DNA of 64,000 bases, taken from assembly GCA_963667785.2 (NCBI GenBank), contig CAXXMU010000002.1, positions 864,001 to 928,000 of the forward strand, read 5' to 3'. The DNA is from Alphaproteobacteria bacterium (GTDB lineage: Bacteria; Pseudomonadota; Alphaproteobacteria; UBA828). Under the pieces are notes generated by a model. It had not been told where the DNA came from and made no database searches. It saw nothing but the letters and a program-made list of their open reading frames with translations. Shown here piece after piece: positions 4,734 through 18,694 of the stretch (positions within the stretch are counted from its first letter, which is position 1; each line of letters opens with the position of its first letter). Both the position numbers and the translations under genes were made by a program.

Positions 4734-5069
4734 ATGAACATCGAGGAACGGACCGGCGACTCGGCAGTCATCGTGTCCCTGGACGGCCGGCTGGACGGAA
4801 CCACCGCGCCGGACGTCGAGAAGCAGGTTTCCGCCATCGTGGACCGCGGCGACGTCCGCATCGTGCTGGACTGCGACAGGATGAGCTACGTCAGCAGCGC
4901 CGGCCTGCGCGTGCTGCTCCTCTGTGCCCGGAAATGCCAGCAGGGCGGCGGCAAGCTGGCCATCGCGGGCCTGCAGCCGGAATGCCTGTCGGTATTGGAG
5001 ATGAGCGGATTTCACAAGATCATCGAGTGCCACGAGACGAGCGAGACCGCGCTCGCCGCCGTCTCGTGA
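4734..5069 (+). CDS. STAS-domain anti-sigma factor antagonist
   Basis: MNIEE..GRLDGTTA..LDCDRMSYVSSAGLRVLL with the phosphorylatable Ser motif; ATG at 4734. Confidence 0.9.
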   Translation: MNIEERTGDSAVIVSLDGRLDGTTAPDVEKQVSAIVDRGDVRIVLDCDRMSYVSSAGLRVLLLCARKCQQGGGKLAIAGLQPECLSVLEMSGFHKIIECHETSETALAAVS

Positions 5070-5118
5070 GGCCCGGCCGCCGCCGCCGGCCCTCTTCTCG
5101 TCGTCCGGAGTCGATTCC

Positions 5119-5787
5119 ATGCTGACGTTCCACGAAGAGATCATGGTGCTCCTTCTCCATGACGAGAACGGCACCTTCCTGCCGGTGAGCGAGCACACGC
5201 TCAACCGCGCTCTGACGGGCGCGGTGCTCATGGACCTGGCGTTCGCCAACAGGATCGATACCGATCCAGAGCGGCTGGTCGTCATCGATACCACGCCGAC
5301 CGGCGATCCCCTGCTCGATCGCATACTGGCCCGCATCGCCGCCGAGACGGGCAGCGCCGACAGCAGGACGTGGATCGAGACCCTGTCCGCCGAGGAGGCG
5401 TCCTCGGAGCAGGCGGGAACGATCCGGATGGCCGCGCTCGACCGGCTCGTGGAGCGCGGCGTTCTGGAACGCCGGGAAGAGAAGTTCCTGTGGGTCTTCC
5501 GCGCCCGGCGCTATCCGACGATCGACGGGAAGGTCGAGCAGGAGGCGAAGAAGCGCATCGCGGACGTGCTCTTCTCCGAAGAGATCCCGGACCCGAGGGA
5601 CGTCGCTCTCATCTGTCTCGTCGACAGCTGCAACATCCTGCAGACCATCTTCTCGAAGCGGGAGATCGACCGGGTCGAGCCGCGCATCGAGCAGATCCGC
5701 AAGATGGACCTGATCGGGCGCGAGATGGCCGGCGCCATCGCCGACATCGAGCGGGCCATCGCCATCGCGGCGGCGCACACCTTCTGA
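5119..5787 (+). CDS. GPP34/GOLPH3 family protein
   Basis: MLTFHEEIMVLLLHDE..G..GAVLMDLA..RID..PTGDPLLD..LVERGVL..FLWVF..RYP is the characteristic GPP34 pattern. Confidence 0.85.
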   Translation: MLTFHEEIMVLLLHDENGTFLPVSEHTLNRALTGAVLMDLAFANRIDTDPERLVVIDTTPTGDPLLDRILARIAAETGSADSRTWIETLSAEEASSEQAGTIRMAALDRLVERGVLERREEKFLWVFRARRYPTIDGKVEQEAKKRIADVLFSEEIPDPRDVALICLVDSCNILQTIFSKREIDRVEPRIEQIRKMDLIGREMAGAIADIERAIAIAAAHTF

Positions 5788-5815: not shown

Positions 5816-5947
5816 AGAGCGTATCCGTCTTTGACGGATACGCGACAGGCCGCGACCGCGGCCCGCCGCTTATGCGGCGCCCTCGCGGAGGCGCCGGCAG
5901 GCGCGCGGAATCGCGCGACGGCCGGCTGCCGTGAGCAATAAAGAGGC
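5816..5947. repeat. Multi-hairpin intergenic repeat element, copy 1
   Basis: AGAGCGTATCCGTCTTTGACGGATACGCGACAGGCCGCGACCGCGGCC...AAAGAGGC, near-identical to 9242-9356. Confidence 0.9.
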
Positions 5948-5951
5948 GTCG

Positions 5952-6542
5952 TCAGTCGTCAGACGGCGCGGGGCGGCGGCCGAGCCCGCCCTGCCAGCGC
6001 GCGGCCGATTCCTGCCGCAGACCGAACTGGTCGAGCACGCGCGCGACGGTGTAGTCGACCATCGCGTCGATGGACCGGGGCTCGTTGTAGAAGGCCGGCA
6101 CCGGCGGCAGGATGCTCACCCCGAGCCGCGCCAGCTTGAGCATGTTCTCGAGGTGGATGGCGCTCAGCGGCGTCTCACGCACCATGAGGACGAGCGGCCG
6201 GCGCTCCTTGATCATCACGTCGGCCGCGCGGTGGATCAGGTTCTCGCTGAGCCCGGAGGCGATGGCGGCCAGGCTCCGCGCCGAGCAGGGCGCGACCGCC
6301 ATGCCGTCGATCGCAGCCGAGCCCGACGACATGAGCGCCGCCATGTCGCCCGGCCCGTAGTGACGATCGGCGAGCGCGTGAACCTCGTCGAGGCCCATGC
6401 CGGTCTCGTGCTCGAGGGTGTGCCGTCCCCACTTGCTGACGATCAGATGGGTCTCGACCGGCGTCACCGCCAGCGCCTCCAGCAGGCGGACGCCGTAGAC
6501 TGCGCCGCTCGCGCCGGTGATGCCGACGACGAGGCTCTTCAC
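5952..6542 (-). CDS. ubiX: Flavin prenyltransferase UbiX
   Basis: VKSLVVGITGASGAVYG..SSGS..APCS..RAADVMIKERRPLVLMVRETPL..PVPAFY; GTG at 6542. Confidence 0.93.
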   Translation of the reverse strand: MKSLVVGITGASGAVYGVRLLEALAVTPVETHLIVSKWGRHTLEHETGMGLDEVHALADRHYGPGDMAALMSSGSAAIDGMAVAPCSARSLAAIASGLSENLIHRAADVMIKERRPLVLMVRETPLSAIHLENMLKLARLGVSILPPVPAFYNEPRSIDAMVDYTVARVLDQFGLRQESAARWQGGLGRRPAPSDD

Positions 6543-6546
6543 CGCC

Positions 6547-7269
6547 CTAGCGCTCCGCGCTCGCGAGCCAGAGCGCGAGGAAGCGCCCGAGCCACGCGTG
6601 CACCGCCCGGTGATACCGCGCGTGGTTCGCGCGCTGCTCCGCCACGGTCTGCGCGCCCCGGCGCCCCAGGTCCTCGGCCGGCGGGTCGCGGTCGAGCCAG
6701 CGCGAGAGCACCGCGTCGTCGACCTCGGGGTGGAACTGCAGCCCCCAGGTCGTCTCCCCGTAGCGGAACGCCTGGTTCTCGAACACGTCGCGCCGCACGA
6801 GGTGACGCGCGCCCGCCGGCAGGGTGAACGCCTCGCCGTGACGATGTGCCACGGTGAGCGGCGCGTCGAGGGCGAGATCGTCGGCCGCGCCGTCCAGCGG
6901 CTCCACCGGGTAGTAGCCGAACTCGTAGAGCCCGTCGGGATCGGGCCCCACAGTGGCGCCGAGGGTCCGCGCCACCATCTGGCTGCCGAGGCAGATGCCG
7001 AGCATCGGCACACCCGCCGCCATGACGCGGGGAATCCAGTCCAGCTCCGCCCGCACGTAGTCGACATGGTCGTCGTTGGCGCTCTGCGGCCCGCCGAAGC
7101 TGACGACGCCCGCCAGCGAGTCCACGCCGTCCGGGAACGGCTCTCCCTTGTTGGCCCGGACGATCCGGGATCGCCGCCCGAGCGCGGCGAGCAGAGACGG
7201 CACGGCACCGGCGTCGATGGCGGTGACGTGGGTCACGAGCACCACGGGTGCCTCTGGGTCTGCGCTCAT
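6547..7269 (-). CDS. Class I glutamine amidotransferase-like protein
   Basis: GGPQSAND, LGICLGSQM (Cys nucleophile), GLQFHPE. Confidence 0.9.
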   Translation of the reverse strand: MSADPEAPVVLVTHVTAIDAGAVPSLLAALGRRSRIVRANKGEPFPDGVDSLAGVVSFGGPQSANDDHVDYVRAELDWIPRVMAAGVPMLGICLGSQMVARTLGATVGPDPDGLYEFGYYPVEPLDGAADDLALDAPLTVAHRHGEAFTLPAGARHLVRRDVFENQAFRYGETTWGLQFHPEVDDAVLSRWLDRDPPAEDLGRRGAQTVAEQRANHARYHRAVHAWLGRFLALWLASAER

Positions 7270-7990: not shown

Positions 7991-9227
7991 AGCGGAGCGC
8001 CTCCACCGGATCGAGCCGCGCCGCCCGCCAGGAGGGGTAGATCGTCGCCAGGAACGAGAGGCCGATCGCCATCACCGCCACCATCGCCACCTCGCCCGCA
8101 TCGATCCGGGACGGGAGCTGCGAGAGGAAGCGGATCTCGGCCGGGAACAGCGCCGTATCCGTCAGGTTCTCCAGCCACAGCCTGATGGCGTCGATATTGG
8201 CGGCGAAGGCGATGCCGCCGGCGACGCCGAGCGCCGTTCCCGCCAGCCCGATCGCCGCCCCGTTCATGAAGAAGATGCGCAGGATCTGCCCGCGCGTCGC
8301 CCCCATGGTGCGCAGGATGGCGATGTCGCGGCCCTTGTCCTTCACCACCATGATCAGCCCGGCGATGATGTTGAAGGCAGCGACCAGCACGATCAGGGTC
8401 AGGATCACGAACATGACGTTGCGCTCGACCTGGAGCGCGTTGACGAACTGCGCGTTGGCCCGGCGCCAGTCGACGACCCAGCCCTGCTGCCCAACGGCGG
8501 CGCGCACGCCGGCCTCGACCGCGCGCAGGCGCTCGGGATCGGCGGCGGTCAGCCCGATGGCGGTGACCGCGCCGGGCAACCTGAAATAGATCTGGGCGAG
8601 GTCAAGCGGCATCAGGACGTAGGTGCTGTCGTACTCGAACATGCCGACGTCGAAGGTCGCCACCACGGGATAGGCGCGCGAGCGGGGCATGGTCCCCATC
8701 AGCGTCGCCCGGCCCTCGGGCGAGAGCAGCGTGATCGACTCGCCAACCCTGACGCCGAGCTTGCGCGCCATGCGCTCGCCGATCACGACCCCCTCGCCGT
8801 CGGTGAAGCCCTCGAGCCGGCCGCTGACGATGTTCTCCGTGAGCAGCGGGCGCGCCGCCAGATAGTCGTCGCGCACGCCGCGCACCTGGCCGAAGGTGGC
8901 GTTGCCCCCGGCCGCCGCGATCACCTGGCCCTCGACGGCCGGCGAGACGGAGACGACGCCGTCGACCGCTTTGATGCGGTCTGCCAGCGTATCGAAGTCC
9001 ACCAGCCTCTCGTCGAAGGAATAGACCGTCATGTGCCCGTTGAGCCCGAGGATGCGGGCCACCAGCTCCTCGCGGAATCCGTTCATCACCGACATGACGA
9101 TGATGAGCGTGGCGACGCCGAGGAAGATGCCGATCAGGGAGAACGCCGCGATGACGGAGACCAGGCCCTCCTGCCGCCGGGCGCGCAGGTAGCGAAACGC
9201 GACGAGGCGCTCGAAGGCCGAGAACAT
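7983..9227 (-). CDS. lolE: Lipoprotein-releasing ABC transporter permease LolC/LolE
   Basis: [44 protein letters not shown]. Confidence 0.92.
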
Positions 9228-15463: not shown

Positions 15464-15591
15464 GGGATCCTGTGGGATCCTGTGGGATTCGGCGGGATTC
15501 GGCTGGAGAAGGCGGGATTGCACGGGACGGGAGCGGGGGTCCTGGGGGGCATGCGGGATTTCGTGGGATAGCGAGGGATTCCGGGCGGGAC
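15464..15591 (+). repeat. 10-bp-phased GGGAT tandem array
   Basis: GGGA(T) at 15464, 15474, 15484, 15494, 15514, 15524, then 15555, 15565, 15575. Confidence 0.8.
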
Positions 15592-15766: not shown

Positions 15767-15949
15767 CCCCTCCTCACCCCGGCCCTCTCCTCCCCGGCGG
15801 GGAGGAGAGGGAGGATAGGCGGCACCGCCACCGTCCTTCACCGCCCTCCGGGGACGTGCTTCACTGCCCTCTGGGTTTGAGAGCAAGGTCAGTGCAACCC
15901 ACGTCCCCTCTCCGCCCTTCAAGGGGGGAGAGGGACAGGGAGAGGTGGG
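15767..15949. repeat. Composite palindromic (boxC/REP-like) element, left copy
   Basis: CCTCACCCCGGCCCTCTCCTCCCC-GGC-GGGGAGGAGAGGG, GGCGG-CA-CCGCC, and CCCTCTCC..GGAGAGGGACAGGGAGAGGTGGG; reverse complement resembles 18586-18694. Confidence 0.8.
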
Positions 15950-16123
15950 TTTACTGGCTCGGCGACTCGCTCCGGCCCGCCGCGCCCTGCCCTTCCGTCA
16001 CCTCGTGATCGTCCTGGGCAGCCTCGCCCGGCGGCTTCGGCGTGACCGGACGCTGGGCCCGCGTGCTATGGTCGCCACCACCTCTGCTGGAGTGGGAGGT
16101 GCGCTGAGGGAGTGGATGACGCA

Positions 16124-16324
16124 ATGACCTCCAACCGAATGCCCGGCCTAGATTTTGGGCTCGGCGAGACGGCCGACATGATCCGCTCGTCCGCCGAGAG
16201 CTTCGCGCAGGCCGAGATCGCCCCACGTGCCGAAGAGATCGAGGCGAGCAGCCTGTTGCCTCTTCTACCCTTGCCAGCACACGAGACAATGGGCATTACG
16301 TTCACAATCATAGAAAAGCGATAG
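16124..16324 (+). pseudogene. Truncated duplicate of the ivd 5' end (about 42 codons) fused to unrelated sequence
   Basis: [42 protein letters not shown] matches the N-terminus of 17323..18495, then diverges at about 16250; stops at 16324. Confidence 0.88.
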
Positions 16325-16328
16325 CTCA

Positions 16329-17066
16329 ATGAATGACGCGTCACTTTTTAGGAAATTGAGTCCAAATACCAATATCTATAGGATATTCTCAAACAAATAC
16401 TTTTTTGAACTGTTCGAGAATAGACAAAACGCGCTAGTATTGCCAAGAAAGTGGGACGATCCATTCGAAAATGTTTTGTTGCGCTGCAAGGCCCGATCAG
16501 TCTCAGACGATGAGGAAGTTACCTTCGGATTTAGAGACCGTGTCTATGGCCAATGCTGGACACTGGAATCCGTCTCTGACGCTATGTGGCAAATATATTC
16601 ACGCAAAAGAAACGGAATCCGCGTAAGAACGACAGTTGGAAAGCTCATCGAAAGCATCCGCGCAGTGCACGGCGAAGGAGCGAATTTGAGCTGCTTTATT
16701 GGACGCGTCAGTTATGTGACCGACGAGAAGCTTCGTGAGCTTGGCAAAACACTCTTTAAAGAATGTGTCCATAGCCGCAAGGTTGCGCAGTCACTGCTCA
16801 TTAAGCGTAAAGCCTACAGATACGAAAATGAGGTGCGACTAATCTATTTCGATCATGCTCATCATCAATCCATTAGAGAGGTTTACAGATATAGCTTTGA
16901 TCCACTCTATATGATCGACCAGGTTATGGTTGATGGACGGATTCCTGTAGAAAAATCTCTTGCTTTGAAACAGGAGATTTTCGAGCGCACTGGTCTTTCA
17001 AAACGTCGCATTAGACGCTCATTGCTTTACAGTGAGCCGAAAAATTTTGTTGTATACGTTCCATAA
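16329..17066 (+). CDS. DUF2971 domain protein
   Basis: YR..W-DDPFE..YGQCWT..SDAMWQIYS..GIRV..KRKAYRYENEVR motifs; atypical codon usage. Confidence 0.8.
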   Translation: MNDASLFRKLSPNTNIYRIFSNKYFFELFENRQNALVLPRKWDDPFENVLLRCKARSVSDDEEVTFGFRDRVYGQCWTLESVSDAMWQIYSRKRNGIRVRTTVGKLIESIRAVHGEGANLSCFIGRVSYVTDEKLRELGKTLFKECVHSRKVAQSLLIKRKAYRYENEVRLIYFDHAHHQSIREVYRYSFDPLYMIDQVMVDGRIPVEKSLALKQEIFERTGLSKRRIRRSLLYSEPKNFVVYVP

Positions 17067-17322
17067 TCTATCACAATAATGCATCTCCCCTGTAGTGTTG
17101 TCCAGAAACACTTGAGAAGTGTTATTCACATTCTCAGGGCAGCTAAGCGCGCGATTCAAGCATAAGCGAGCCCCTGCTCACTACAACACCGAATAATTCA
17201 GCTATTGCTTGCGGCTATCTGATGTACCCTAGCGTGCGCGAGAGCACCGCCAAGCTTTCCGGCCCTGTGCTATTGTCACCACACCGTTGGAGTGTGAGGC
17301 AGCGAAAGGAGCCGGCATCGCA

Positions 17323-18495
17323 ATGACCTCCAACCGAATGCCCGGCCTGGATTTCGGGCTCGGCGAGACGGCCGACATGATCCGGTCCTCGGTCGAGAGC
17401 TTCGCGCAGGCCGAGATCGCCCCGCGCGCGGAAGAGATCGACGCGAGCAACGCCTTCCCGCGCGACCTCTGGCCCCGGCTCGGCGAACTCGGGCTGCTCG
17501 GCATCACCGTGGAGGAGGAGCAAGGCGGCAGCGGCCTCGGCTACCTCGAGCACTGCGTCGCCATGGAGGAGGTGAGCCGCGCGTCCGCCTCCGTCGGCCT
17601 CAGCTACGGCGCGCACTCCAACCTCTGCGTCAACCAGATCAGGCTGAACGGCACGCCCGCCCAGCGCGACCGCCACCTGCCGAAGCTCATCTCCGGCGAG
17701 CATGTCGGCGCGCTCGCCATGAGCGAGCCGGGCGCGGGCTCGGACGTGGTGGGCATGCGCACGCGGGCGGAGCGCAAGGGCGATCGCTACGTGCTGAACG
17801 GGTCCAAGATGTGGATCACCAACGGGCCGGAGGCCGAGGTGCTGGTGGTCTACGCCAAGACCGACGCAGAGGCCGGCAGCCGCGGCATCACCGCCTTCCT
17901 GATCGAGAAGGGCATGCCCGGCTTCTCCACCGCCCAGAAGCTCGACAAGCTCGGCATGCGCGGCTCCGACACCTGCGAGCTCGTGTTCGAGGACTGCGAG
18001 GTGCCGGCGGAGAACGTGATCGGCGAGGAGGGCGGCGGCGTGGGCGTGCTGATGAGCGGGCTCGACTACGAGCGCGCGGTGCTGGCCGCGGGCCCGCTCG
18101 GCATCATGCGCGCCTGCATGGACATCGTGCTGCCCTACGTCCACCAGCGGCAGCAGTTCGGCCGGCCCATCGGCACCTTCCAGCTCATGCAGGGCAAGCT
18201 CGCGGACATGTACACGGCGATGAACGCCTCCCGCGCCTACGTCTACGCCGTGGCGCAGGCCTGCGATCGCGGCGAGACCAGCCGCAAGGACGCCGCCGGT
18301 GCCATCCTCTTCGCCGCCGAGAAGGCCACCTGGATGGCGCTGGAGGCGATCCAGGCGCTGGGCGGCAACGGCTACGTCAACGAGTTCGCCACCGGCCGGC
18401 TGCTGCGCGACGCCAAGCTCTACGAGATCGGCGCCGGCACCAGCGAGATCCGCCGCATGCTCATCGGCCGCGAGCTCTTCGAGGAGACCGAGTGA
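17323..18495 (+). CDS. ivd: Isovaleryl-CoA dehydrogenase
   Basis: [58 protein letters not shown]. Confidence 0.95.
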
Positions 18496-18585: not shown

Positions 18586-18694
18586 CCCACCTCCCCCTGT
18601 CCCCCTCCCCCAAAGGCGGAGGGGGAACTTGGGCGGCACCGCCCGTTCTCCCTCTCCGCCCCTGGGGGCGGAGAGGGCCGGGGTGAGGTGGGGG
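18586..18694. repeat. Composite palindromic (boxC/REP-like) element, right copy, inverted relative to 15767-15949
   Basis: CCCACCTCCCCCTGTCCCCCTCC..GGAGGGGG, GGCGGCACCGCC, CCCTCTCCGCCCC-TG-GGGGCGGAGAGGGCCGGGGTGAGGTGGGG; lies between convergent genes. Confidence 0.8.

Follow-up and report, generated by a model that had tools for sequence, protein, structure and literature searches.

How did a single low-GC gene come to lie between two diverged copies of the start of a housekeeping gene? We addressed this question in the window, which refers to the whole 64-kb stretch of DNA analysed here, and in L003, the closest relative compared. At the DNA level, the comparison of islets covers these two genomes (n = 2).

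Anatomy of the islet upstream of ivd

The intact gene occupies 17323..18495 on the plus strand (ATG at 17323) and encodes a product of 390 aa. The first-pass annotation identified it as ivd, a gene of leucine breakdown, and this assignment stands. The product contains three acyl-CoA dehydrogenase domains, and its closest solved relatives (4kto, E=1e-198; 4o5m; 1ivh) are isovaleryl-CoA dehydrogenases. No NCBIfam equivalog reached its cut-off for this product.

A direct repeat of 131 nt locates at 16120-16250 and 17319-17449, in two copies that are 92% identical at a spacing of 1199. The homology extends upstream of the ATG to about 16056 and 17261, respectively, a stretch that aligns at 50 matched and 9 mismatched positions plus 12 gap columns. 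Once this ~68-nt extension is counted, the full repeat reaches ~190 nt and includes the promoter-proximal region. Copy 1 (16056..16250, plus strand) is a displaced 5' fragment composed of ~68 nt of promoter-proximal DNA and ivd codons 1-42/43, and its left side adjoins native high-GC DNA without a break. Copy 2 (17261..17449, plus strand) contains the promoter-proximal region with a conserved CCGGCC-CTGTGCTAT element, followed by codons 1-42/43 of the working ivd.

The insert between the two copies (16251..17260, plus strand) has 33-54% GC versus 70% GC in the window, and is the sole low-GC patch within these 64 kb. The motif CCCTTGCCAGCAC (16268..16280, plus strand) marks its left edge. This foreign-looking piece of ~1 kb holds one gene (16329..17066, plus strand; GC3 0.45, with 0.97 for ivd), a 245-aa cargo that profile matches and the predicted fold assign to DUF2971 / PADLOC PDC-S31. 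The right spacer (17067..17260, plus strand) is non-coding, shows neither terminator-like sites nor Rfam matches, and folds no better than its shuffles (z -0.68). Scanning 15900-17500 for promoters and terminators returned 0 terminators and two promoter-like sites, both on the minus strand, versus 1.0 +/- 1.0 expected.

GC-rich REP-like hairpins are present upstream of the module (15767..15949, no strand assigned), and within the window their other copies occur only downstream of ivd. These matching hairpins (18586..18693, likewise without strand) include a 126-nt fold of -93.5 kcal/mol (z -6.5). The same REP-like hairpins bracket the ivd hot spot in both the window and L003. A structured RNA or riboswitch in the islet was rejected, as only three sub-threshold microRNA-model matches were found, all within the flanking hairpins.

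The first-pass annotation described the islet as integrase-less, which holds within the range covered: no recombinase or transposase Pfam family was detected in the islet, nor in any of the 41 nearby ORFs tested, chosen at a length of at least 150 aa between 2.5 and 32 kb of the window. The six L003 ORFs tested upstream of ivd also lack recombinase families. A transposon, insertion sequence or MITE was rejected on the basis of no transposase in the ORFs tested, no terminal inverted repeats, and a duplication of ~190 nt that is 8% diverged.

The cargo and the ivd site in relatives

We take PDC-S31 to be a candidate defence family only, and its name had no match in the literature searched. The cargo matches the PADLOC profile of this family (PDLC04993) with E=7.4e-78, aligning residues 8-242 to profile positions 9-242 of 245, and scores 28.4 bits against Pfam DUF2971 (PF11185; cut-off 22). 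In its structure model (pLDDT 88.6), the cargo is predicted to be a DarT-like protein with the ADP-ribosyltransferase fold. All six PDB matches of the model at E<=0.001 are DarT, although the TM-scores are low (0.37-0.46) and no DarG-like partner is present. Among 37 aligned homologues, E168, Y90 and S91 are invariant and E166 is at least 90% conserved. In the available text of PMC12522546, a predicted DarT/AbiGi-like ADP-ribosyltransferase family has a conserved Tyr and ExE catalytic motifs, and we infer that the conserved E166-x-E168, Y90 and S91 together would correspond to its motifs II and III. DUF2971 also includes Aristaios, which lactococcal plasmids encode as a single-gene system of abortive infection (PMC11381338). 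As far as these two partial sources go (PMC11381338, PMC12522546), the cargo shares with Aristaios and the predicted family the DUF2971 assignment, an ExE motif, an ART-like fold, DarT as the nearest solved structure, and the single-gene format. In contrast, it has 245 aa versus 316 aa given for Aristaios in that part of PMC11381338, and the likeness is at the family level rather than by direct comparison. The cargo is a probable anti-phage candidate, and a defence of the abortive-infection type is expected of it.

On plasmids, every homologue of the cargo falls below 60% identity, and Klebsiella accounts for 181 of the 216. No flanking repeats were found at two such distant plasmid homologues, L001 (Shinella) and L002 (Phenylobacterium). 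The N-terminal extension of P0006, a 332-aa homologue, showed some resemblance to the ivd 5' region read in another frame (score 40 versus 26.8 +/- 4.7; 5/300 shuffles reach it), and was discounted after ~45 frame-and-target combinations.

Upstream of ivd in L003, we observed a different low-GC, single-gene defence candidate, PD-T4-7 (E=1e-39). It stops just before CCRGCC(A)CTGTGCTAT, ~68 nt ahead of the ivd ATG, which is the right junction of the window islet. The first-pass annotation had suggested a hot spot at the ivd start and, as its check, a search for other cargo upstream of ivd in relatives. PD-T4-7 in L003 versus PDC-S31 in the window is such a case, and the suggestion gains further support from the protein collection, where 14 more short ORFs of this clade are fragments of the ivd N-terminus. 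Seven of them end after residue 49 and may be ORFs cut by contig ends. The ivd coding sequence, 93% identical in nucleotides, is all that the L003 locus and the 64-kb window have in common; the upstream neighbours are unrelated, with an E1 dehydrogenase in the window versus pyrF, pyrD and pyrB in L003. A strong GC drop upstream of ivd occurs in 2/81 sources, the window and L003. A second high-identity copy of the ivd 5' end occurs at 0/80 related genome loci, and the nine second matches there are downstream paralogues of 35-46% identity.

Two coincidences give indirect signs of linkage. One ivd fragment and one IVD share the longest-contig figure 111827, and one cargo homologue (60% identical) shares the figure 15024 with one IVD.

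On the left side, the CCCTTGCCAGCAC motif is matched at 12/13 positions to the left of the L003 cargo (5933-5945; 9/500 shuffles reach the score). It could be the decayed tail of an ivd fragment or a conserved cassette end. Aligned in register with ivd codons 43-56, the tail at 16250-16290 agrees at 18/41 positions, a weak similarity (P about 0.01-0.06) that 8.7% of random high-GC 30-mers equal. To the left of the L003 cargo no ivd fragment is detectable (score 20 versus 19.1 +/- 2.4 in shuffles; 75/200 reach it), and therefore the repeat architecture is not universal.

These junctions bear on one alternative, which sees the islet as what is left of a site-specific integrative element, or as a satellite of one. 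Such an element would have the 5' part of ivd as its target and supply a replacement promoter and 5' end, its integrase having been lost or acting in trans from another place in the genome. The order of a displaced 5' remnant, cargo and element-borne 5' end is known from dusA islands, in the accessible part of PMC4482086. The right junction is identical in the window and L003, the left-edge motif is common at 12/13, and seven fragments in relatives share the end residue 49. Judged on these sequences, a trans-acting site-specific recombinase would fit the shared right junction and the left motif as well as common descent of the frame. On the other hand, no integrase is seen in the islet, in the 41 ORFs at 2.5-32 kb, or in the upstream ORFs tested in L003, and the two elements are each ~1 kb with one gene. 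The repeats of ~190 nt are orthologue-like, include non-coding promoter DNA and lack an identical core, whereas the similarity at the putative core, between the tail and ivd codons 43-56, is the above 18/41 only. We regard this alternative as doubtful.

Divergence between the two ivd 5' ends

Between 16121-16250 and its counterpart, the first-pass annotation counted 10 mismatches, 8 synonymous and 2 replacements, and we reproduced this count codon by codon. The synonymous differences (fragment/intact) are CTA/CTG, TTT/TTC, CGC/CGG, TCG/TCC, TCC/TCG, CCA/CCG, CGT/CGC and GCC/GCG, and the replacements are A24V and E40D. Right at the edge, position 16251 adds an 11th difference, again a replacement (S43N). 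Over 43 codons, 8 synonymous versus 3 non-synonymous differences are thus found, a small count of 11 in all. By the Nei-Gojobori method (29.8 synonymous and 99.2 non-synonymous sites), dS is 0.33, dN 0.031, and dN/dS ~0.09. Under neutrality, 8 or more synonymous changes among 11 differences have a binomial probability of 6.8e-4, and with a neutral fragment facing a constrained intact gene the excess remains at P=0.016. The earlier argument that neutral decay of a duplicate should not give this bias is borne out statistically under both models.

By type (fragment/intact), the mismatches are A/G twice, T/C twice, C/G five times, C/T once and G/A once. They are not adenine-specific, and no reverse-transcriptase family occurs in the ORFs tested; a diversity-generating retroelement was rejected. 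The longest exact runs between the copies, 30, 30 and 29 nt, are in the coding part, and there is no identical core.

The divergence between the copies at unconstrained sites is about that between the ivd genes of two genomes, the window and L003. In codons 1-42 the copies have dS 0.34, their upstream non-coding DNA has a JC distance of 0.17 plus the 12 gap columns, and dS between the window and L003 ivd is 0.21-0.24. As a possible recombination signal within ivd, dS for the latter pair is 0.59 in codons 1-42 versus 0.21 in the remainder (Fisher P=0.006), and in the control pair L004/L005 it is also mildly up (0.87 versus 0.71).

The residues A24, E40 and S43 of the fragment occur in 0/120 related IVDs, of which 119 have V/D/N and one has I/D/N. 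Because its three amino-acid changes are absent from all 120, the fragment is decaying and is not maintained as IVD. Polarised with L003, most unique changes fall on the fragment. At third positions, four of these replace G or C by A or T, a pattern with which AT-biased decay would agree as well. At the neutral ratio, the three replacements predict ~1 synonymous change since the loss of function, and hence ~7 of the 8 synonymous differences predate the joining of the copies. The first-pass annotation had offered two explanations for the bias. The joining of two functional alleles agrees with a divergence like that of ivd between genomes, whereas selection on the fragment as a protein does not agree with its residues, seen in 0/120 IVDs.

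An old in-place duplication would explain the anatomy differently: either the target was duplicated over a long stretch, or the insert truncated a tandem ivd paralogue, and the upstream copy has since been decaying. Over 126 nt the copies indeed show fewer mismatches with each other (10) than with L003 (16 and 12 for copies 1 and 2), and the fragment has three unique replacements and a GC3 of 0.83 versus 0.93 for its intact counterpart. However, this history leaves the synonymous excess to chance (P=7e-4 under neutrality, P=0.016 with the fragment alone neutral), and at the 80 related loci the ivd 5' end never occurs twice at high identity. Truncation would, moreover, need a chance end ~68 nt before the ATG, the same as for the L003 cargo. 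We consider such a duplication very unlikely.

Meanwhile, the fragment opens a 66-codon ORF (16124..16324, plus strand; ATG 16124) with 43 ivd-like codons followed by 23 unrelated ones. It scores 20.9 bits for Acyl-CoA_dh_N, under the 22.9 cut-off. The ivd-type GGGAG ribosome-binding sequence is kept ahead of its ATG, and its stop (TAG, 16322-16324) lies 4 nt upstream of the cargo ATG, a spacing at which the ORF may still serve as a translated leader. Selection could then keep the fragment as a translated leader for the cargo ribosomes, or as a small protein of its own. The open frame of 66 codons, the retained GGGAG and the adjacent stop agree with this, as do a cargo ATG without its own Shine-Dalgarno-like sequence and the lack of a terminator-like site between leader and cargo. 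Nevertheless, a constraint to keep the frame open leaves the synonymous-only divergence unexplained. The three replacements fall at positions that are V/D/N in 119/120 IVDs, the fragments of relatives have 1-10 replacements apiece, and L003 has no such leader. As the cause of the pattern, leader selection appears unlikely.

Finally, the repeat could be an assembly chimera of islet-bearing and islet-free strains, joined within their shared ivd 5' sequence. The window apparently belongs to a 973,932-nt assembled contig, and many cargo homologues are on contigs of 1.2-3 kb, as if assemblies break at such repeats. Yet the longest exact matches between the copies span 29-30 nt, less than we would expect to mislead an assembler at its customary final k-mer lengths. 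In an islet-free strain nothing corresponds to the point where codon 43 meets low-GC DNA (16250/16251), and therefore a molecule joining the fragment to the cargo must exist regardless. A chimera seems highly improbable.

A proposed origin and comparison with known systems

Our findings favour, at somewhat better than even confidence, a hot spot that is anchored on the ivd start and holds, in the window, a one-gene anti-phage islet without an integrase. Here two once-functional alleles would have been joined by homologous recombination. The donor DNA, from a related lineage, would have carried in order an old fragment tail, the low-GC defence gene, and the promoter and 5' end of the donor's ivd. 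RecA-type homologous recombination with the resident chromosome would follow, with both homology arms in ivd sequence. A ~1.2 kb circle could enter by one crossover; linear DNA would instead need two, the left homology arm then lying in the 5' fragment and the right one deeper in ivd. The promoter and first ~43 codons of the resident copy would be pushed leftward, to the place where they now decay, and the working ivd would be headed by the incoming promoter and 5' end. By coupling, the cargo would probably be driven by the displaced promoter, its ribosome-binding site and the open 66-codon leader.

We also entertain, more tentatively, that the islet is a self-propagating recombinase-free cassette, whose repeat is itself the mobility device, the cassette looping out by RecA as a ~1.2 kb circle or travelling on linear DNA. 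It would re-insert in any related genome in which ivd alone supplies both homology arms, and each insertion would leave the resident 5' end as a new fragment and install the donor's. If true, this would explain how the hot spot follows ivd into unrelated neighbourhoods, and how the cargo is expressed from a captured host promoter via a leader ORF.

The joining of two alleles by recombination would provide a route by which a genome without visible nearby mobile-element genes acquires and exchanges anti-phage genes, using as landing pad a housekeeping gene's own start while the gene remains intact. Synonymous-biased divergence between repeats would be a simple signature that separates recombined alleles from duplication on the spot, and it is searchable genome-wide. 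With two unrelated defence candidates in the two genomes compared at this site, a survey of the ivd start across this uncultured Rhodospirillales-like clade may be a practical way to discover new defence systems of the single-gene type.

In Campbell-type integration, one homologous crossover leaves the insert between two homology copies and makes neighbours of the donor and recipient alleles. The ivd islet resembles such a product, in that copy, insert and copy follow each other with two alleles adjacent. This type of integration is known chiefly from plasmids and laboratory constructs, and we know of no demonstrated case of a natural 1.2-kb circle that bears a defence gene and has nothing but a gene start for an 'attachment site'. 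Comparable exchange at conserved flanks is reportedly found in the minimal mobile elements of Neisseria. SXT in prfC is an island that, like the dusA islands, integrates in the 5' end of a gene and replaces that end.

The dusA-specific GEIs have a dedicated integrase and 21-bp semiconserved att repeats, as given in the available portion of PMC4482086. The same portion describes a working 5' end that adjoins the insert and a remnant 5' end on the far side, as at ivd. Unlike these GEIs, so far as this text describes them, the ivd islet lacks an integrase, and its ~190-nt repeat is an orthologue-like allele that includes promoter DNA.

The core defence hot spots cDHS1/2 of P. aeruginosa exchange cargo by homologous recombination at conserved flanks (excerpts of PMC10250203), and the integrase-free TA islets do so as well (excerpts of PMC13617665). 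Within what these excerpts cover, the ivd islet is like both in having differing defence cargo at one site, low GC and no mobility genes, with spread proposed via recombination in conserved neighbouring sequence. Relative to the multi-system islands of the cDHS1/2 type in that part of PMC10250203, the ivd islet is one gene of ~1 kb. As for membership among integrase-free hot spots, different cargo was found at the same site (n=2 genomes), and conserved core genes were not found on both flanks. Unlike cDHS1/2 and the TA islets as portrayed in these partial sources (PMC10250203, PMC13617665), the ivd site is conserved on one side only and is marked by a duplicated promoter and gene start, a duplication through which one gene could provide the homology arms on both sides.

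Duplicated start of ivd and the low-GC cargo

A direct repeat of 131 nt (identity 92%) occupies 16120–16250 and 17319–17449 with a spacing of 1199 nt, where the first-pass annotation had placed it. Copy 1 begins a 66-codon ORF (ATG 16124, stop 16322–16324), referred to as the fragment, and copy 2 begins the intact ivd gene (17323–18495, 390 aa). The ivd product contains three acyl-CoA dehydrogenase domains, and its closest solved structures are isovaleryl-CoA dehydrogenases (IVDs; 4kto, E=1e-198). The duplication had been described as 130 bp. Homology extends beyond this length, reaching approximately 68 nt 5' of both ATGs, to ~16056 and ~17261; this upstream alignment has 50 matching and 9 mismatching positions and 12 gap columns. 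The repeat unit thus consists of the promoter-proximal region plus 43 codons. We notice that GTGCTAT, some 55–60 nt 5' of the ivd start codon, is conserved in all three promoter-proximal regions: 16056–16075 and 17261–17275 in the window, and 6931–6946 in L003, the corresponding locus of the closest relative. This motif could serve as a -10-like or operator element. Units containing GGGAT(T) are arrayed at a 10-nt period at 15464–15580, in the long non-coding region upstream of the fragment, cargo and ivd.

The insert at 16251–17260 has 33–54% GC, compared with 69.8% for the window, and it is the sole stretch of the 64 kb in which 300-nt windows fall below 58% GC. It holds one gene, the cargo (16329–17066, 245 aa), with a GC3 of 0.45 versus 0.97 in ivd. 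The cargo matches Pfam DUF2971 (28.4 bits, cut-off 22). Its full length also matches PDC-S31, a PADLOC candidate family (E=7.4e-78) whose name was not found in a literature search; no NCBIfam model matched. At E<=0.001, 362 of 1048 candidates are homologues, the best non-self one being 80% identical. In an alignment of 37 homologues, every sequence has E168, and E166 is nearly invariant. The structure model built from this alignment has a mean pLDDT of 88.6, and all six of its PDB matches at E<=0.001 are DarT toxins (DNA ADP-ribosyltransferases); the TM-scores are modest (0.37–0.46). A conserved Tyr and ExE mark the DarT/AbiGi-like ADP-ribosyltransferases among which DUF2971 has been placed (PMC12522546), and the DUF2971 protein Aristaios is described as a single-gene abortive-infection system (PMC11381338). 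The predicted DarT-like fold of the cargo and its conserved glutamates agree with these descriptions.

Homologues of the cargo often lie on very short contigs (for example 1165, 1210, 1214, 1231 and 1285 nt), near the 1199-nt repeat period. Such lengths would be expected from assemblies that break at flanking repeats, or from circles, if these exist. One homologue, P0006 (332 aa, 64% identical), has an 87-residue N-terminal extension with weak likeness to the ivd 5' region read in an alternative frame. It may be another fragment-cargo junction, but the likeness is not significant once multiple testing is taken into account.

Divergence between the two copies

Within 16121–16250, codon comparison reproduced the 10 mismatches of the first-pass annotation, eight synonymous and two replacements (A24V, E40D). 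One more replacement, S43N, lies at the repeat edge (16251). The comparison covers 29.8 synonymous and 99.2 non-synonymous sites and gives dS 0.33 and dN 0.031 (dN/dS 0.09). At least 8 synonymous changes among 11 differences would occur with P=6.8e-4 under neutrality, and with P=0.016 if the intact gene is constrained and the fragment alone drifts. Among the IVDs of the best 120 longer matches, 119 have V24, D40 and N43, and the remaining one has I24. A24, E40 and S43 of the fragment occur in none of the 120, so the fragment is no longer under IVD constraint. At the neutral ratio, its three replacements over ~97 non-synonymous sites correspond to about one synonymous change expected since that loss, so that about seven of the eight synonymous differences would date from a time when both copies stood in working genes. 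Duplication of the ivd start in place is disfavoured by this substitution pattern. It is possible that the two copies were joined by a chimeric assembly; however, the exact runs common to both are no longer than 30, 30 and 29 nt, and some molecule must carry the fragment-cargo junction anyway.

Divergence of the copies at free sites (dS 0.34, with a JC distance of 0.17 and indels in the upstream part) is comparable to that between the ivd genes of the window and L003 (dS 0.24 overall, 0.21 outside codons 1–42). The copies show 10 mismatches with each other, and 16 and 12 with L003. Being nearer each other than to L003, they appear to derive from related lineages. Synonymous divergence between the window and L003 is approximately threefold higher in codons 1–42 (window 17323–17448, L003 7001–7126) than in the rest of the gene (0.59 vs 0.21, Fisher P=0.006); the same comparison in a control pair gave 0.87 vs 0.71. 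This hints at a separate history of the ivd 5' end in one or both genomes, which may be a recombination mosaic. GC3 of the L003 ivd is 0.79 at the 5' end vs 0.96 for the whole gene.

The ivd locus in relatives

A genome scan with residues 1–60 of the intact IVD kept 80 loci from 293 relatives. None of the 80 carries a second high-identity ivd 5' copy or a cargo homologue, and the nine second matches are downstream paralogues (35–46% identical). The only close locus is L003 (10.8-kb contig, Rhodospirillales MAG), with an ivd identity of 93.1% over 1169 nt. Outside ivd, neither DNA nor translated comparison matched L003 to the window. Upstream of ivd, L003 has pyrF, pyrD and pyrB, and the window has a fused E1 dehydrogenase.

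L003 too has a low-GC stretch (38–55%) immediately before ivd, with a cargo ORF of its own (6001–6909, 302 aa) that matches PADLOC PD-T4-7 (E=1e-39) and no Pfam family. An ivd fragment is not detectable to its left. The L003 cargo ends 22 nt before CCAGCCACTGTGCTAT, and the insert of the window ends at CCGGCC-CTGTGCTAT. Of the 16 positions in these right-edge motifs, 15 match, a score reached by 12 of 500 shuffles. Both motifs lie approximately 68 nt before the ivd ATG. A left-edge motif, CCCTTGCC(A/G)GCAC, is common to both loci at 12 of 13 positions (9 of 500 shuffles). Among 81 sources, only in the window and L003 does GC fall by more than 0.25 upstream of ivd, the next largest drop being 0.14.

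GC-rich REP-like hairpins at 15767–15949 and 18586–18693, in inverted orientation and nowhere else in the 64 kb, bracket the fragment-cargo-ivd module. The L003 module is bracketed likewise by its own repeats, at 4814–5588 (a 300-nt unit, twice) and 8177–8450 (a 97-nt unit, twice, inverted). The two sets have identical cores of 17–18 nt in common. Possibly, the ivd module itself has been transferred from one genomic context to another.

Searched among short proteins, the 66-aa ORF gave 26 matches including itself, of which 15, its own included, have the clade N-terminus. Seven of these 15 end after residue 49, with 4–10 replacements each, and such ORF ends may be contig ends. One of the 15, P0139, departs from the ivd sequence at residue 28. 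The fragment P0127 and the IVD P0259 are listed with longest contigs of equal length (111,827 nt), as are the cargo homologue P0007 (60% identical) and the IVD P0165 (15,024 nt). The breadth of a putative ivd hot spot is indicated by two DNA loci and, indirectly, by evidence at the protein level.

Possible route of insertion and known islets

We infer that homologous recombination with DNA of a relative already carrying cargo before its ivd would be the simplest recombinase-free route. In the product, the start of allele A would be followed by the foreign gene and then by the start of allele B with the rest of the gene. It could form by single crossover of a circle made of one repeat plus cargo (1199 nt), or from linear DNA by a double crossover whose left arm lies in the fragment and whose right arm lies within ivd. 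Both routes need ivd homology only, which would explain why the hot spot goes with ivd rather than with a flanking gene pair.

Alternatively, a trans-acting recombinase may use a site within ivd, by analogy with dusA-type islands (PMC4482086). The fixed right junction would fit such a possibility, but the repeat is long and orthologue-like, an identical core is lacking, and no integrase was found among the tested ORFs of either locus. In the window, recombinase and transposase families are absent from the islet and from all 41 tested ORFs of >=150 aa at 2.5–32 kb. The islet also lacks terminal inverted repeats, terminator-like sites and Rfam matches above threshold. Apart from the islet and unrelated to it, a full-length GPP34 (Golgi phosphoprotein 3) domain ORF lies at 5119–5787 (+) (E=5e-50), a family name unusual for bacteria.

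The fragment retains GGGAG before its ATG, and the cargo ATG has no such sequence. The leader ORF is open throughout; its stop and the cargo ATG are 4 nt apart, with no terminator-like site in between. These features together suggest that the displaced host promoter and leader may drive the defence gene, and that the second copy would drive ivd.

Published accounts already describe integrase-free defence or toxin-antitoxin islets whose spread relies on recombination in conserved flanks (PMC10250203, PMC13617665). In contrast to those islets, the ivd locus is anchored on a single gene, its repeat consists of a promoter and gene start in duplicate, and its cargo is one gene.
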